Part shown: piece after piece, positions 21,519 through 30,091 of the stretch
How positions within the stretch are numbered: the first letter of the stretch is position 1
Layout of the letters: each line of letters starts with the position of its first letter
Assembly (NCBI GenBank): GCA_017409765.1
Contig: JAFQSA010000003.1
Coordinates: 1-57,324, forward strand
Source of the DNA: Clostridia bacterium
GTDB taxonomy: Bacteria > Bacillota > Clostridia > Christensenellales > CAG-314
DNA: 57,324 nt
Reading direction: 5' to 3'
Translations under genes and position numbers: made by a program
The notes under the pieces: generated by a model
The model's input: only the letters and a program-made list of their open reading frames with translations
What the model was told of the DNA's origin: nothing
The model's database searches: none

Positions 21519-22204
21519 TGAACAAACTAACGCACGTAGCAATAATCATGGATGGCAATGGTCGTTGGGCGCAAGGCAAAGGGCTCGTTCGCATGGAAGG
21601 GCACAAGCAAGGCCTTGCTACTGCCGAAAAGATCATCGAGCATTCTATCAAAGTGGGCATCAAATACCTCTCATTGTACGTTTTTTCCACCGAAAATTGG
21701 AAAAGACCTCAAATGGAAGTGTCCACGCTGTTTTCCCTTGCGGAAAAGTATCTGGACAAATTCCAAGATTTTTGCAAAAACAAGGTGCGAGTTGTGGTTT
21801 CTGGCAGTCGTGATGGATTGCCTAAAAAATTGGTCAAAAAGGCGGAACAAATACAAAAGGAAACTGCAAATCACGATGCAATTTGCGTAAATCTTTGCAT
21901 AAACTATGGTGGACAGCAGGATATTTTGCAAGCGGTAAACAAACTTGCGGAAAGTGGCTTGCCCATCACGGCGGAAAGTTTGCAACAAAATTTGTACAAT
22001 GGCTTTATTCCCGCGCCAGATGTAATCGTTCGCACGGGCGGACAAAAGCGCTTGTCCAACTTTTTGCTTTACCAAAGCGCCTATGCGGAACTGTATTTTT
22101 CCAATACGCTTTGGCCAGATTTTTCCATTGAGGAGTACAATGATATCATTGCCGACTACGAACTGCGCATTCGTAATTTCGGAGGATTAGTCGATGCTAA
22201 ATAA
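21518..22204 (+). CDS. uppS: Undecaprenyl diphosphate synthase
   Basis: HVAIIMDGNGRWA, FSTENWKRP, RTGGQKRLSNFLL. Confidence 0.97.
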   Translation: MNKLTHVAIIMDGNGRWAQGKGLVRMEGHKQGLATAEKIIEHSIKVGIKYLSLYVFSTENWKRPQMEVSTLFSLAEKYLDKFQDFCKNKVRVVVSGSRDGLPKKLVKKAEQIQKETANHDAICVNLCINYGGQQDILQAVNKLAESGLPITAESLQQNLYNGFIPAPDVIVRTGGQKRLSNFLLYQSAYAELYFSNTLWPDFSIEEYNDIIADYELRIRNFGGLVDAK

Positions 22205-23189
22205 AACTTCCTTTTGGAAGCGAAACTTTGTTAGTCTATTCATCCTTATCGTGATGGTAGGGATGATTTTGCTAAACGTTTTTCTTCCAAACTTTCAAAA
22301 CAAAAACTTTATCAGCGGTCGCGGTATCAATTCCGCGCTTATTTCCGCGCTAATTTTACTCGCCGTAATCGAAATGCGTCGAGCTTTTGGCTTTGAAAGA
22401 ATTCCGCATTGTTTTAGTTGGCTAATTTGGCTGTTTGGCTTTGGTATTGGCCCATGCTACAGCTTTTTTGGTTTCCACGGCATTGTATTCATGGTTTTGT
22501 TTGTGTTTATTTGCGCGGTGTTTACGGCGCTAATTCGCAACCGAGTGGATAGTTTGGTGTTTATCGCATCAGTTTTGATATACCCCGGACTTATCATGTC
22601 TAGTTTGCTGTACCTAAATCGTTGTGCAACCAACCAAGTTATCACCAATCCGCAAATGCTCGAATACATATCTTACGACATTTGGTGGCACGTAAGCGAC
22701 TATCGTTATCAACAACTTTTGCCTTACAATGCAATTTCTATGGCGTTTGTATTTTCCGTTTCTTGCCTTACAGACGCCTTTGCGTATGTAGTTGGTAGTA
22801 TTTTTGGCAAGCACAAACTTTGCCCAGAAATCAGCCCCAAAAAGACTGTCGAAGGTGCAGTTGGTGGCGTTTTGGGCGGCTTGCTTGGATCTTTTGTAGT
22901 GTGGATCTTTTTCGATTCTCCGCTGGGTATTTTGCCAAAGCAGTTTGGTTTGTCCTTTGTTGGATTGGGACTTAGCAATGTAAACGTTGCCGTTGCCTAC
23001 GTTTCACTTGGTTTACTTGGCTCAATCATGACGCAACTTGGCGACTTGCTCGCAAGCATGTTCAAGCGTTATTGTGGAATCAAGGACTACAGTCGTATTT
23101 TGGGTGAGCATGGCGGAATTATGGACCGATTTGACGGTATCATGCTCAACTCTTTGCTTGTATCAAGCGTATTGATATTTATTGTGTAA
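22194..23189 (+). CDS. cdsA: Phosphatidate cytidylyltransferase
   Basis: ISPKKTVEG, GDLLASMFKR...KD, HGGIMDRFD. Confidence 0.94.
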   Translation: MLNKTSFWKRNFVSLFILIVMVGMILLNVFLPNFQNKNFISGRGINSALISALILLAVIEMRRAFGFERIPHCFSWLIWLFGFGIGPCYSFFGFHGIVFMVLFVFICAVFTALIRNRVDSLVFIASVLIYPGLIMSSLLYLNRCATNQVITNPQMLEYISYDIWWHVSDYRYQQLLPYNAISMAFVFSVSCLTDAFAYVVGSIFGKHKLCPEISPKKTVEGAVGGVLGGLLGSFVVWIFFDSPLGILPKQFGLSFVGLGLSNVNVAVAYVSLGLLGSIMTQLGDLLASMFKRYCGIKDYSRILGEHGGIMDRFDGIMLNSLLVSSVLIFIV

Positions 23190-25686: not shown

Positions 25687-26712
25687 ATGAAGCAAGCAAC
25701 AGTCAAAAACATCAAAATTGGTGGCGGAGCGCCCATATCAATCCAGTCCATGACCAACCTGTCGGTACTGGATATTGATGCTACTTTGGAGCAAATCAAG
25801 GCTCTTGAGTGTGCCGGTTGCGACATTGTTCGCATTGCTTTGCCCAACTCCCAATCGGTGGATGCCTTCAAGGTGGTGCGTACAAAAACGGATATTCCAC
25901 TTGTTGCGGATATTCATTTTGACTACCGACTTGCCATCGGCGGTATCGAGGCTGGTGCGGACAAAATTCGCATCAATCCCGGCAACATTCCCCAAGAACA
26001 TTTGGACAAAGTTATCCATTGTGCCAAAGCCCACAACATCGCAATCAGGCTGGGCGTAAATGGTGGCTCTGTCAACAAGGCATATCTCGACAAATTCAAT
26101 GGCGACAAAAAACTTGCACTTATCGAAAGTTTGCGTGACTACACAAACTACTTTGCTGACCGCAACTTTGATAACCTTGTTTTGTCGGTAAAAAGCAGTG
26201 ATATCCGCCAAACAGTGGAACTCAACAGAGCAATTGCAACGCTTGGCTACCCATTGCATCTCGGTGTTACCGAGGCTGGTCTTTTGCGCCAAGGTCTTGT
26301 TAAAAATGCAATTGGCATCGGCTCGCTACTTTTGGATGGTATCGGTGATACAATCCGTGTTTCGTTGACGTCCAATCCCGTTGACGAGGTGTATGCCGCA
26401 AAGGACATCTTGGTTAGTCTTGGCCTAAAAAGTGGTGTGCAATTTGTATCCTGCCCCAAGTGTGGACGTTGCTCCATCGATCTCGAAACAATTGCAACAC
26501 AAGTCTACGACTATGTAAAAACTCTCAACAAAAATATCAAAGTTGCCGTTATGGGTTGCGAAGTGAACGGCCCAGGCGAGTGCAAAGATGCCGACATTGG
26601 CATTGCTGGCGCAAACGGTGGCTACATACTATTCAAACATGGACAAGTCTACAAGCGCATTGCTGGCGAAAATGTCCTACAACAATTCATCGAGGAAGTA
26701 AACAAACTGTAA
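25687..26712 (+). CDS. ispG: HMBPP synthase IspG
   Basis: IQSMTN, PLVADIHF, RINPGN, SCPKCGR, MGCEVNGPGE. Confidence 0.97.
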   Translation: MKQATVKNIKIGGGAPISIQSMTNLSVLDIDATLEQIKALECAGCDIVRIALPNSQSVDAFKVVRTKTDIPLVADIHFDYRLAIGGIEAGADKIRINPGNIPQEHLDKVIHCAKAHNIAIRLGVNGGSVNKAYLDKFNGDKKLALIESLRDYTNYFADRNFDNLVLSVKSSDIRQTVELNRAIATLGYPLHLGVTEAGLLRQGLVKNAIGIGSLLLDGIGDTIRVSLTSNPVDEVYAAKDILVSLGLKSGVQFVSCPKCGRCSIDLETIATQVYDYVKTLNKNIKVAVMGCEVNGPGECKDADIGIAGANGGYILFKHGQVYKRIAGENVLQQFIEEVNKL

Positions 26713-26713
26713 A

Positions 26714-28363
26714 ATGCTAATCAATCAACTGCACGAAAAATTCCCAGATCTCCAAGACTTGCGAGTTAGGGACATACTTGTTGACAAGGACAAACGCAAA
26801 ATCCGTTGCATTTTGTCCTATCCCAACAGTTCTGAGTTGGATGCTACCGTAAAAAGTAACATCTACGCTTTCGTGCGCAGTTGTGTGCCCAAGGGATACT
26901 ATTGCGAAACAAAAATCTACAACGACGTCTTTTCCGAGGTTTCCTTCCGCACAAATCTCTTCGATTTTATCAAAAAGCGCTTTCCCGCTTTCAAAATTCC
27001 CCGTGAAAAAACGGTAATTAGCCAACAAGATCGTAACATTTCCGTTGTTTTTAGCGTAACGGAAATAACAAAAGGCAATCTCGAAGTGGCAAATTTCATC
27101 GAGGAACTTGCCGAACACTACAAAAATTTCACTTGCTACAACGTTTCTTTCGATGTCAAGGTGGACAAGGATATTCAAATTGACTACAATGCCTACATCC
27201 TCGACCAAGAAAGATTGGTGCAACTTGCCATCAACAAGGAACTTATGCGTCCTGTTCGCAGTTTTTCTGTAACCAATGTGGAAAAATACATCGGCAAAGT
27301 TATCAACAACACCAGCCCAATGTACATTTCCGATATTCGCGGTGTAATGAACGATTGTGTTTTGTGTGGTACAGTTTCCGCCAAGACGCTAAAAGCCACC
27401 AAAAAGGACAAGTCGCTTTACATGTGCAAGTTCTCTTTGAGTGACAATTCCGGTGCATCCATTCCTTGTGTGCTGTTTGTTCGATTTGAAATTGCCGATT
27501 TCCAAACGCTAAAACAAACAACAGGCAAGACGGATAGCGAAGTTAAAACCATTTCCGAAACAAAAACGGCCGCAAACGACCGCAAAATGAAAAAGTTGAT
27601 GAACATCTACGACACAATGGAAGTGTTGGTGCGTGGTAAAATTACCTACAACGACTTTTCTAACCAGTTGGAAATGCTTGTTTTTGACCTTTGCCTTTGC
27701 AAAATTTTGAAGGACGAGGGTAAACTGAAGAATATTGCCCCTGTTCCACAAAACTACATGATTGTTCAACCTATGTACTACGAGGACTACCAACAAGCAT
27801 CGTTTACGCAAAGTTTGTTCCGTAACGATTGGTTTGCCGAGCAAAACCTTGTTGTTTTGCATGCAAATGCAACGGGTAACGTTGCCACAAAGGACAAGTT
27901 TGTTAGCCTTGCTGGTGTCAAAATTTGCAACGGAAAGGTTGTGGAAAGTTTTGCTACATACGTCAACCCCGAAATGACAATTGCCCCCGAGTTGGAAAAA
28001 CAAATTCCAACCACCAGCGAGCAGTTGCTTTATTGTCATACCATAACAGAGTTAATCCCCGATTTGTACAAGTTTACCCATGGTTGCGCACTTGTTGGCA
28101 CGGACATGCACAAACTTGTGGAAATGTTGGATTACTACGCCGAACCATTTGGATACAAGTTTACTAACAAGATTATCGATCAGGCGGAACTTTTGGACAA
28201 AATGTTTGAGGAAAGCACCTTTGCTAAAAAGCCAAACTGTGCCAAACTAGAAGATGTTGCCAAAGTTTGCAAAATTCCATTTGAAAAATCCGCTTTTTGC
28301 AATGTTACAGCGCAAACTGTTGCGCAATGTCTTGTAAAATTGTCCGATAATTTCAAAGGATAA
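26714..28363 (+). CDS. PolC-derived protein: N-terminal domain + OB fold + degenerate DEDDh exonuclease fold; no PHP or polymerase core
   Basis: Sits at the ispG-polC-rimP position; OB-like segment KFSLSDNSGASI...VLVRGKITYNDFSNQLEM; exo-like VVLHANATG...GVKICNGKVVESFATYVNP; 549 aa, far shorter than PolC. Confidence 0.75.
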   Translation: MLINQLHEKFPDLQDLRVRDILVDKDKRKIRCILSYPNSSELDATVKSNIYAFVRSCVPKGYYCETKIYNDVFSEVSFRTNLFDFIKKRFPAFKIPREKTVISQQDRNISVVFSVTEITKGNLEVANFIEELAEHYKNFTCYNVSFDVKVDKDIQIDYNAYILDQERLVQLAINKELMRPVRSFSVTNVEKYIGKVINNTSPMYISDIRGVMNDCVLCGTVSAKTLKATKKDKSLYMCKFSLSDNSGASIPCVLFVRFEIADFQTLKQTTGKTDSEVKTISETKTAANDRKMKKLMNIYDTMEVLVRGKITYNDFSNQLEMLVFDLCLCKILKDEGKLKNIAPVPQNYMIVQPMYYEDYQQASFTQSLFRNDWFAEQNLVVLHANATGNVATKDKFVSLAGVKICNGKVVESFATYVNPEMTIAPELEKQIPTTSEQLLYCHTITELIPDLYKFTHGCALVGTDMHKLVEMLDYYAEPFGYKFTNKIIDQAELLDKMFEESTFAKKPNCAKLEDVAKVCKIPFEKSAFCNVTAQTVAQCLVKLSDNFKG

Positions 28364-28388
28364 ATATATATTTATTGTTCGCAAACAC

Positions 28389-28417
28389 TTGTCAAAGAAC
28401 TTTGTCTATGGTATAAT
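28389..28417 (+). promoter_or_regulatory. Sigma-A promoter of rimP-nusA-infB operon
   Basis: TTGTCA-N17-TATAAT with extended TGn. Confidence 0.75.
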
Positions 28418-28477
28418 TATCTCAACGTAAAGGAAACTGTCGTTTTCTTGCGTTCGCCAAGTTGATTATTCTATGGT

Positions 28478-28513
28478 GAGAGTGGAGTTCTTTTTCTCCA
28501 CTCTCTACTTTTT
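28478..28513 (+). promoter_or_regulatory. rimP leader attenuator hairpin
   Basis: GAGAGTGGAG/CTCCACTCTC stem plus T-rich tail just before the rimP RBS, like the conserved AGAGTGGG rimP leader. Confidence 0.7.
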
Positions 28514-28526
28514 GTAAGGAGGATTT

Positions 28527-28985
28527 ATGGGAAAGGTAAGTGATCAAGTATTTGAACTTGTTGCCCCCATTGCCGAAAGTTTCGGTTTGGAAGTTATCGA
28601 AGTGTTGTACGAAAAGAAGTACGACGGAATGAACTTGACCATCGTCATCGACAAAGATGGTGGTGTAGATATCAACGATTGCGAAAAGTTGCACCGCGCA
28701 ATTGACGCTCCACTTGACGAGTTGGATCCAATTGATTGTGCCTACATTTTGAACGTTTCTTCTCCAGGACTTGATCGTCCTTTGAAGACGGAACGCGATT
28801 TCAAACGCAATCTCAACAAAAAGATTTCCATCAAGTTGTACAAAGCCTTGGATGGCAAAAAGAACTTTGTAGGTATTTTGACCTCCTACGACGAGGAAAC
28901 TTTCACAATCACAGCAGAAAAAGGTCAAACAATCACATTTGTAAAAAAAGACACCGCACACATTGAGCCGGTTATTGAATTTTAG
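28527..28985 (+). CDS. rimP: Ribosome maturation factor RimP
   Basis: IDKDGGVDINDC, YILNVSSPGLDRPL. Confidence 0.96.
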   Translation: MGKVSDQVFELVAPIAESFGLEVIEVLYEKKYDGMNLTIVIDKDGGVDINDCEKLHRAIDAPLDELDPIDCAYILNVSSPGLDRPLKTERDFKRNLNKKISIKLYKALDGKKNFVGILTSYDEETFTITAEKGQTITFVKKDTAHIEPVIEF

Positions 28986-28996
28986 GAGGAACAAAA

Positions 28997-30091
28997 ATGA
29001 CAAGCAAGGATTTCTTTCTCGCTTTAGACGCACTTGAAAGAGAAAAAGGTATCAGCAGAGAAAAGGTTATCGAATCTTTGGAAACAGCACTTGCAATCGC
29101 TTGCAAAAAGCACTTTGGCGAGGCATCCAACGTTATCGTAAAGACCAACCCAGAAAAATTTACCATTCGCGCATATATTTCCAAAACTATCGTGGAAGTA
29201 GTGGAAGTTCCCGAAAAGGAAATTTCCTTGGAGGACGCTCGTCTTATCAAAAAGTCCTACAAACTTGGTGACGATGTTTTGACAGAAATTGATCCACGCA
29301 CATTTGGTAGAATTGCTGCACAAAACGCTCGCCAAGTAATCTTGAACAGTTTGCATCAAGCAGAAAAGGACGTAACATTTAGCCAATTTGCCGACAAGGA
29401 AAACGAACTTTTGATTGGTGTTGTAACTCGTATCAAGGAAGATGGCACAATCTTTGTTGAAATCGGCAAAAACCAAATGGAAGGTATGCTTGCCGTTAAC
29501 GAACAAATCCCAGGCGAACGTTACCAACCAGGCGACCGCATCAAGGTGCTTGTAAAGCGTGTTCGCGATGGTGTTGGTGGAACACAAGTTATCTTGTCTC
29601 GTGCAAGTTATGTGTTCATCAAGCGCTTGTTCGAGGCTGAAGTTCCCGAAATTCGTGCTGAAATCGTACAAATCAAGAGCATCGTTCGCGAGGCAGGATT
29701 CCGTACAAAGATGGCAGTTTACTCCACCGACCCCGAAATTGACGCTGTTGGCGCATGCGTAGGTAACAAAGGTGCGCGTGTTAACTCCATCGTTGCAGAA
29801 ATTGGTGGCGAAAAGATCGACATCATCCCATGGAGTAGCGATATTCTCGACTACATTGCAAGAGCACTTTCTCCTGCAAAAGTTTTGATTGTCCAAGCAG
29901 ACGAAGACACGAAGGAAGCAAAAGTTGTTGTTCCAGACGAAAAACTTTCTCTTGCTATTGGTAAGGAAGGTCAAAATGCTCGTCTTGCTGCAAAACTTAC
30001 CGGCTGGAAGATTGACGTAAAGTCCTACTCTGCAGCAATGCAAAGTGGCATGTTCGACAACATGGACGAAGGCGAGAGCGATGGCGAGTAA
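28997..30091 (+). CDS. nusA: Transcription factor NusA
   Basis: FGRIAAQ, REAGFRTK, GEKIDII, LSLAIGKEGQNARLAAKLTGWKID. Confidence 0.98.
   Translation: MTSKDFFLALDALEREKGISREKVIESLETALAIACKKHFGEASNVIVKTNPEKFTIRAYISKTIVEVVEVPEKEISLEDARLIKKSYKLGDDVLTEIDPRTFGRIAAQNARQVILNSLHQAEKDVTFSQFADKENELLIGVVTRIKEDGTIFVEIGKNQMEGMLAVNEQIPGERYQPGDRIKVLVKRVRDGVGGTQVILSRASYVFIKRLFEAEVPEIRAEIVQIKSIVREAGFRTKMAVYSTDPEIDAVGACVGNKGARVNSIVAEIGGEKIDIIPWSSDILDYIARALSPAKVLIVQADEDTKEAKVVVPDEKLSLAIGKEGQNARLAAKLTGWKIDVKSYSAAMQSGMFDNMDEGESDGE

Follow-up and report, generated by a model that had tools for sequence, protein, structure and literature searches.

A PolC-derived protein without polymerase core or DEDDh residues at the polC locus of a Christensenellales bacterium

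Introduction

PolC is regarded as the hallmark replicative polymerase of low-GC Gram-positive bacteria. A locus from a Clostridia bacterium (GTDB order Christensenellales, family CAG-314) raises the question of what may be kept of PolC, and in what role, once the polymerase itself is gone. The window, i.e., the whole stretch of DNA that was analyzed, comprises 57,324 nucleotides (positions 1 to 57,324 of the forward strand of contig JAFQSA010000003.1, assembly GCA_017409765.1). Between ispG and rimP-nusA, it carries an open reading frame (ORF) of 549 amino acids (aa) whose product, P0001, is almost certainly a PolC-derived, polymerase-less protein without the DEDDh residues of the exonuclease site; it is referred to here as the remnant. 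With moderate confidence, we read the remnant as a non-catalytic, clamp-tethered, epsilon-like accessory subunit of a DnaE-only replisome.

An earlier note, prepared from the sequence of this window, had described the ORF as PolC reduced to its N-terminal domain, an OB fold and a dead exonuclease fold, and had proposed a selected, non-catalytic protein in a DnaE-only genome. Every part of that proposal open to in silico testing held, and so did the local pattern; out of its sight were the absence of PolC from about half of the order, the active appearance of most remnants and the repeated loss of the site. No prior description of a polymerase-less PolC remnant was found in the open literature, where the supplementary tables of two papers (PMC12926913; PMC3919608) could list such genomes.

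Domain Architecture and PolC Ancestry

The ORF starts with ATG and its translation is free of stops. Its parts are as follows.

26714..28363, forward strand: whole ORF of the PolC-derived remnant P0001, 549 aa plus stop (ORF list, translation, 103 homologues)
26714..27193, forward strand: N-terminal domain, residues 1-160, two tandem beta-beta-alpha-beta modules with homology to the PolC N-terminus
27194..27265, forward strand: conserved helix between the N-terminal domain and the OB fold, residues 161-184 (QERLVQLAINKELM...; alignment, model)
27266..27718, forward strand: OB fold, residues 185-335 (PF01336, hhalign, dN/dS 0.02-0.06)
27485..27604, forward strand: helical insert of ~30-40 aa in the OB fold, residues 258-297 (alignment; model helices 263-270 and 274-296)
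27719..27838, forward strand: linker in place of the N-terminal half of PHP, residues 336-375 (joint alignment)
27788..27808, forward strand: clamp-binding-like motif YQQASFT, residues 359-365 (alignment; weak DnaN complex model)
27839..28360, forward strand: DnaQ/DEDDh exonuclease fold without catalytic residues, residues 376-549 (NCBIfam, PDB sequence, Foldseek, alignment)
27851..27877, forward strand: ExoI equivalent VVLHANATG, residues 380-388, with D replaced by H383 and E by N385
28091..28117, forward strand: ExoII equivalent LVGTDMHKL, residues 460-468, with the catalytic D replaced by L468
28289..28309, forward strand: ExoIII equivalent SAFCNVT, residues 526-532, with H replaced by A527 and D by T532

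The PolC ancestry of this architecture is borne out by profile, sequence and structure comparisons, which agree on the three domains and match the boundaries first read by eye (OB fold at ~27280-27700, exonuclease fold at ~27840-28350). A profile of residues 1-335, built from 86 family members, was matched by hhalign to nine PolC N-termini of the same order with a probability of 97.9 and an E-value of 3.9e-13; the match runs over 272 columns (residues 16-329) and takes in the N-terminal domain as well as the OB fold. The OB model PF01336 was matched in 40 of 91 family members. Further downstream, residues ~371-546 align to positions 417-587 of the NCBIfam PolC model NF001688 (E 5.6e-12), although the score of 44 bits does not reach the whole-protein cut-off of 873 bits, and sub-threshold NCBIfam matches to DEDD exonucleases were obtained as well. 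Among PDB sequences, the exonuclease domain of Thermotoga PolC was matched (2p1j, E 1.3e-4). The Pfam exonuclease model PF00929 was matched in 35 of the 91 family members; a Pfam search of P0001 gave no PF00929, its sole match being Tad3 at 13.5 bits, below the cut-off of 27.

The AlphaFold2 model of P0001 has a predicted local distance difference test score (pLDDT) of 88.6. In Foldseek, a comparison with PolC that the earlier note had suggested, its top match was the PolC of E. faecium (9qpc_A; E 2.7e-14 over 448 columns); next came folds of the epsilon/DnaQ type, of DinG exonuclease and of RNase T (2gui, 1j53, 2ido, 2p1j and 8h2f; E 1e-8 to 1e-9). The N-terminal domain, modelled alone at a pLDDT of 94.3, matched generic alpha/beta folds, namely PrgH ring-building modules, archaeal NusA KH-like domains and ribosomal proteins, with template modelling scores of ~0.3-0.5.

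A joint alignment with PolC places a linker of ~40 residues where PolC has the N-terminal half of PHP, and no PHP sequence is found on either side of the exonuclease domain. The remnant ends at residue 549, past the last exonuclease helix, at the point where PolC runs on into its second PHP half; no polymerase core (palm, thumb or fingers) is present. Both absences had been noted before and are apparent in the alignment. Within the remnant, the helix at residues 161-184 is the most conserved segment, with 58% mean identity among distant genus members. The helical insert of the OB fold was present in genera g1 and g18 among the genera compared and is missing from the aligned sister remnants and PolCs.

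Loss of the Exonuclease Site

The three motif strings that had been quoted as replacements of ExoI, ExoII and ExoIII were found at residues 380-388, 460-468 and 526-532. When P0001 was aligned to five sister proteins with intact motifs, all five DEDDh residues proved to be replaced (H383, N385, L468, A527 and T532). Judged from this alignment, the exonuclease site of P0001 appears to be dead, with no rebuilt acidic site. Among 86 genus-level sequences, the position of H383 is occupied by H in 69 and that of N385 by N in 83.

The polC Slot and Its Neighbors

The genes that flank the remnant are the following.

25687..26712, forward strand: ispG, upstream neighbor (NCBIfam over cut-off), with its stop one base before the remnant ATG
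28527..30091, forward strand: rimP (28527..28985) and nusA (28997..30091), downstream neighbors, the ancestral polC context

Neighboring genes were named by NCBIfam models over their cut-offs, except rimP (137 of 163 bits). The context in the window further includes cdsA, dxr and rseP upstream of ispG and infB after rimP-nusA. In Christensenellales, full-length polC was seen between ispG and rimP-nusA in a complete view at five of ten fetched PolC loci; at the other five, the flanks were too short or matches were missing. Because full-length polC of the same order takes the interval between ispG and rimP-nusA, the slot that the remnant ORF occupies is that of polC. The remnant lies in the same interval at 14 of 16 related loci tested, including two where the ORF was detected by profile only and not by single-sequence tblastn. 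The claims of an intact ORF just past the ispG stop, at the position of polC, and of a clean loss of domains there are thus in accord with the coordinates, the named neighbors and the related loci.

Upstream of dxr, a 331-aa ORF (22194-23189 of the window, forward strand) matches the CdsA model only over residues 169-327; either its N-terminal 170 residues are unexplained or its start codon has been called too early.

Replication Genes of the PolC-less Genome

The genome that contains the window (G000) measures 1.455 Mb in 57 contigs and is 92% complete. As the earlier note had supposed, it is DnaE-only: no PolC over the cut-off was found in G000 or in 24 other genomes of the same genus (0 of 25), and G000 encodes a single DnaE of 1181 aa (1347 bits against the NF005298 cut-off of 1260). 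PolC was present in 11 of 16 other families sampled. G000 also carries the clamp DnaN and DnaX, and its DnaE has a QMSLF motif at residue 925. A criterion for an intact PHP metal site, HHDHEH[C/H]DH, is given in the accessible part of a recent survey (PMC12926913). In the window's own family, 30 of 30 DnaE sequences retain the nine PHP residues in full, which makes proofreading by the DnaE PHP domain plausible. Lineage-specific inserts occur in this PHP domain, with the nine residues unchanged: ~45 aa in g20 and g23 (L113 of G281 and L114 of G342), 15 aa in g19 (L099/L100) and ~9 aa in g174 (L102-L104).

G000 has only one other PF00929 match, a 311-aa DEDDh exonuclease with a C-terminal extension of ~130 aa (C47:9848-10783; L028:1054-1986, minus strand). 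Its motifs are intact (FDIE, H-A-V-D-A-D and H-N-S-E-E-D), and it weakly matches the PRK06195 'epsilon' model (75 of 373 bits). Many genomes of the genus contain, in addition, separate ORFs of 189-254 aa that score 60-147 bits against the PolC exonuclease region (e.g., G018:C16:17392-17886, G006:C5:28348-28878 and G016:C29:44267-44815); none was found in G000, at its 92% completeness. Small stand-alone exonucleases were considered as a general compensator and rejected, as G000 has only the 311-aa DEDDh protein. DnaX length was also considered as a sign that the remnant replaces the tau C-terminus and gave no clear signal, since the open frames of most PolC-less genomes (~500-564 aa) overlap in range with those of PolC-bearing genomes (524-706 aa).

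Distribution across Christensenellales and Repeated Loss of the Site

In a survey of 401 genomes of the order, PolC was detected at E <= 1e-100 in 190 (185 over the cut-off), leaving 211 without it. The family counts are nearly all-or-none: PolC was found in 0/20 genomes of f1 (the window's own family in the survey numbering), 0/21 of f8, 0/20 of f11 and 0/20 of f26, as against 21/21 of f5, 21/21 of f9 and 20/20 of f22. Nearly all of the genomes without PolC have a remnant of ~500-550 aa. In the 12 listed families with no PolC (124 genomes), a remnant profile match at E <= 1e-15 was obtained in 114. None of the best 150 remnant-profile matches lies in a frame of PolC length; most are ~500-600 aa, a few 266-424 aa and one 714 aa.

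Most of these remnants have a DEDDh site that looks active. A search with a profile brought up 1215 proteins (E <= 1e-10), of which the best 120 (P0106-P0225) all have intact motifs. The D-x-E, H-N..F-D and H-R-A..D motifs are intact in five sister families and in four genera of f1 (g19, g21, g22 and g24), whereas the site is lost in g1, g18, g20 and g23 of the same family. A separate dead form, with other replacements, occupies the polC slot in family f26. Because f1 also holds active members, the inactivations in f1 and f26 are independent, and on this comparison the catalytic site has evidently died at least twice (in part of f1 and in f26) with the protein retained. The mixture of active and dead genera in f1, together with the dead form in f26, indicates that the site is dispensable while the protein is kept. 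Common linker landmarks argue for one shared truncation event.

Within f1, the number of inactivations was considered on a tree of DnaE N-termini, with remnant states assigned outside g174-g183. Two dead clades (g18 with g1, g178, g182 and g183; g20 with g23) and an active clade (g19 and g21) meet in a three-way split that the tree leaves unresolved; two changes are needed on it, but only one is forced by well-supported branches.

Several observations accompany this distribution. At the f26 loci L115, L117, L118 and L122, the remnant is a more divergent protein of 495-505 aa with an independently degenerated exonuclease-like domain; in one of these genomes (G049, L122), rimP and nusA were undetected downstream within the locus. 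Family f33 (e.g., G056, G168 and G190) is PolC-less and still has the remnant in genomes of only 0.8-1.2 Mb at 98-100% estimated completeness, very small for Clostridia. Candidatus Fimimonas is assigned to Christensenellales, family CAG-314, in the accessible part of one report (PMC8035907), whereas NCBI taxonomy (taxid 2840648) files it under Myxococcaceae, which is probably why related metagenome-assembled genomes read 'Corallococcus sp.'

Selection and Reality of the Gene

Two explanations would deprive the remnant of any function. In one, it is a decaying pseudogene, a polC fragment left by a deletion and not yet broken by stops. The loss of every catalytic residue, an evolution faster than that of DnaN and the lack of a Pfam match for P0001 would fit such decay. 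However, the Nei-Gojobori ratio of nonsynonymous to synonymous substitution (dN/dS) is 0.065 against an orthologue of 93% identity and 0.084 against one of 77% identity, well away from the value near 1, with frameshifted orthologues, that decay would bring. By domain, dN/dS is 0.02-0.06 in the OB fold (0.02 against the 93%-identical orthologue) and 0.11-0.12 in the exonuclease-like domain (0.11 against the same). Stop-free ORFs are present in 24 of 24 other genomes of the genus, and the protein collection holds 103 homologues of ~545 aa, with identities down to 38% and the name 'hypothetical' where they are named at all. Invariant residues, the confident fold and the retention of the remnant in at least 12 PolC-less families speak against decay as well, and a pseudogene is extremely improbable. 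The selected protein free of frameshifts that had been proposed is what these data describe.

The other explanation, an assembly or binning artefact, would have the contig collapsed or chimeric, or polC hidden in the unassembled 8% of the genome, and the fragmented, incomplete state of the G000 assembly leaves room for it. Nevertheless, the same architecture recurs in 24 of 24 genomes of the genus, on contigs of up to hundreds of kb, and PolC is lacking from all 20 genomes of f1 and from eleven other whole families. Contigs of two DNA runs from other studies (X5 and X10) reproduce all 3.3 kb of the stretch, with 30 of 30 bins covered and with neither indels nor joints, and extend across the ORF at both ends. 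The chance of an artefact, including the assembly collapse that had been named as a concern, is negligible. In one genome with 5% contamination, two copies of the remnant with identical scores (G006:C2:79564-81204 and G006:C23:7073-8713) probably represent redundant contigs and not a duplication.

The Linker Motif and the Sliding Clamp

The linker at residues 336-375 has a mean identity of 24% in the genus, against 40-58% elsewhere in the protein, and despite this variability Y348, P353, Q361 and F/L364 are invariant. The clamp-binding consensus is of the QL[SD]LF type, which QTDMF and QTDLF fit; these two are the commonest motifs of the active sisters (27 and 23 times). Of 120 active remnants (the best 120 of 1215), 114 have a Qxx[LMF][FLMIV] motif no more than 45 residues upstream of ExoI. 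The genus motif, Q-x-[SNT]-F-[VT], with Q361 in 86/86, S/N/T at 363, F/L364 in 86/86 and V/T at 365, aligns with QADLF, QSDLL, QQNLF and QTSLF of active sisters.

A complex model of two DnaN chains with residues 336-549 gave a median interface score (ipSAE) of 0.41 (runs 0.33-0.56), against 0.01 for the best control, and was graded as weak support. Contact agreement across runs was at least 72% and partner pLDDT at least 82. In the benchmark, 58 of 80 solved complexes attained the mark, as did 2 of 110 mismatched pairs; at an ipSAE of 0.60 or under, only 7 of the 80 solved complexes did so, and both passing mismatches lie in that range. Epsilon-clamp complexes have already been solved, and the DnaN-model pass may reflect likeness to them. 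Together, the model and the motif weakly favor the sliding clamp over the clamp loader as the partner; the roles put forward as examples in the earlier note, ssDNA binding or a clamp-loader adaptor, are conjectural.

Proposed Function and Alternatives

The following course of events would account for these observations. In an ancestor, the PHP domain and the entire polymerase core were deleted from polC, leaving the N-terminal domain, the OB fold, a new linker and the DnaQ-type exonuclease domain. Replication would then have been carried by a single DnaE, whose intact PHP probably proofreads. In most PolC-less sister lineages, the remnant may act in trans as a clamp-tethered, epsilon-like proofreader, as suggested by the retained DEDDh site and the canonical beta-clamp motif in the linker. 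In the genus of the window and a few other lineages, it would have turned into an accessory, non-catalytic subunit of the DnaE replisome that is anchored on the clamp by the Q361-x-x-F364 motif, with the OB fold contacting single-stranded template DNA and the N-terminal domain possibly contacting DnaE or tau.

Several points weigh against this role. The gene neighbors of the remnant are inherited polC context and provide no direct link to the replisome. The fifth position of the clamp motif is V/T instead of F/L in the genus, where Qxx[LMF][FLMIV] is matched by only 57 of 86 sequences, and a weak pass of the complex model is wrong more often than right, except for a guess that was already likely. 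The relatedness of the PolC N-terminal domain to tau domain V is stated in the accessible part of the survey paper (PMC12926913) and rests on that statement here, because a PDB fold search with the N-terminal domain model returned neither tau domain V nor a PolC N-terminal structure; that domain is not resolved in the cryo-EM entries, as described in the accessible part of another paper (PMC12592400). The remnant has 40-50% identity where DnaN in the same genomes has 75-78%, and this much faster evolution could indicate a looser or changed role. The conserved H383 and N385 may form a residual metal or nucleic-acid site. The 311-aa DEDDh exonuclease is a candidate alternative proofreader. Lastly, transcription is only hinted at by short contigs from two metatranscriptome runs, whose libraries can contain DNA: X19 record 20 (26688-26926, 4 differences) and X17 record 15 (28344-28529, 0 differences) match the ORF, X17 record 14 (27794-28051, 21 differences) probably derives from a relative, and parts of the ORF without RNA contig coverage prove nothing.

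Two further alternatives grant the remnant a function of another kind. It might still be an enzyme, with a site remodelled around H383, N385 and other residues that retains some hydrolytic or nucleotide-binding activity. The replacements at these two positions are conserved and non-random, and the exonuclease-like domain is under purifying selection; on the other hand, all five DEDDh residues are replaced, the L, A and T at three of the positions cannot bind metal, and g20, g23 and f26 carry other, unrelated replacements, indicating loss and not a new common site. We therefore regard a remodelled enzyme as very unlikely. A stronger competitor, though still unlikely, is re-purposing outside replication, e.g., as a factor binding single-stranded DNA or RNA in repair, recombination or regulation. 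The OB fold is under the strongest constraint, a lineage-specific helical insert has been gained, evolution is faster than that of core replisome parts and the clamp model is weak. Against this stand the canonical clamp motif that active sisters keep beside the proofreading domain and the invariance of the same linker positions in dead forms; moreover, the clamp also serves repair, so that this alternative overlaps with the accessory-subunit role preferred here.

Significance for PolC and DnaE Replisomes

A broader proposal, more tentative and perhaps somewhat doubtful, is that the N-terminal domain, OB fold and exonuclease fold of PolC form a module with an autonomous replisome function that needs neither polymerase nor catalysis, and that could organize DnaE, the clamp and the template strand. 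If so, about half of the sampled Christensenellales dropped the PolC polymerase yet kept the module, even after at least two nuclease deaths; they would be natural DnaE-only Firmicutes without the target of PolC-directed antibiotics, and the N-terminal domain and OB fold of PolC, unexplained for so long, would have this same role in all Firmicutes.

The accessible text of a 2026 survey that covered over 3000 complete genomes recognizes only DnaE1-only, PolC+DnaE1 (Clostridia) and PolC+DnaE3 systems, and remarks that among alpha subunits of Pol III the part that gets inactivated is PHP, not the DnaQ proofreader (PMC12926913). The present locus departs from this picture in three ways: Clostridia that are secondarily DnaE-only, a PolC cut down to its non-polymerase front half, and a DnaQ site that has died repeatedly in a protein that was kept. 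As a natural dissection of PolC, the remnant opens to functional tests the N-terminal domain and OB fold, which are unresolved or peripheral in solved structures according to the accessible part of a recent paper (PMC12592400), and it offers a case of a pseudo-enzyme inside the replisome. The same source describes PolC inhibitors under development to spare organisms without PolC (PMC12592400). The lack of the PolC polymerase in a large, uncultured clade of the gut may thus be relevant to the predicted microbiome effects of such inhibitors.

Comparison with Known Systems

Among the closest known systems is PolC itself (NF001688), which shares the slot with the remnant and, within the order, is homologous to it in the N-terminal domain, OB fold and DnaQ-type exonuclease fold. 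PolC is ~1420-1470 aa, compared with 549 aa for the remnant, which lacks PHP, the palm, thumb and fingers, the C-terminal clamp-binding or HhH parts and the DEDDh residues, and has a new linker at the N-terminal PHP half.

The epsilon subunit of E. coli Pol III (DnaQ; 1j53, 2gui and 5fkv) has the same exonuclease fold (Foldseek E ~1e-9). Like the remnant, it is a stand-alone protein that accompanies a polymerase of DnaE type, and near its exonuclease domain there is a clamp-binding motif, a putative one in the case of the remnant. In addition, epsilon serves a structural purpose by linking alpha to the clamp. Unlike the PolC-derived remnant, it is catalytic, has no N-terminal domain or OB fold and is of other ancestry. 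In epsilon, the clamp motif and the alpha-binding tail are found on the C-terminal side of the exonuclease domain, whereas the remnant has its motif on the N-terminal side and no tail.

In PolA2/APEX polymerases, a vestigial exonuclease domain with a clamp-binding motif is described in the accessible part of the 2026 survey (PMC12926913). They resemble the remnant in keeping an inactivated DnaQ-like domain with a QxxLF-type clamp motif, which in the remnant is a putative one. In contrast to the remnant, which has no polymerase left, these family A enzymes of Actinobacteria have kept their polymerase domain.

Also close are the active sisters of ~510 aa, which share with P0001 the slot, the architecture and the linker landmarks (equivalents of Y348, P353 and Q361). 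They differ in keeping D-x-E, H-N-x-x-x-F-D and H-R-A-x-D-D (120 of the best 120), in their canonical QxD[LM]F motif (114 of the 120 fit the pattern) and in having no OB insert, and the five that were aligned share only 20-23% identity with P0001. They are annotated as 'hypothetical', 'ribonuclease H-like domain-containing' or 'DNA polymerase III epsilon subunit family exonuclease'. P0001 shows the traits of this family of PolC-derived remnants: a length of ~500-550 aa, the polC slot, freedom from PHP and polymerase, and a linker with Y..V.P and Q..[LF].

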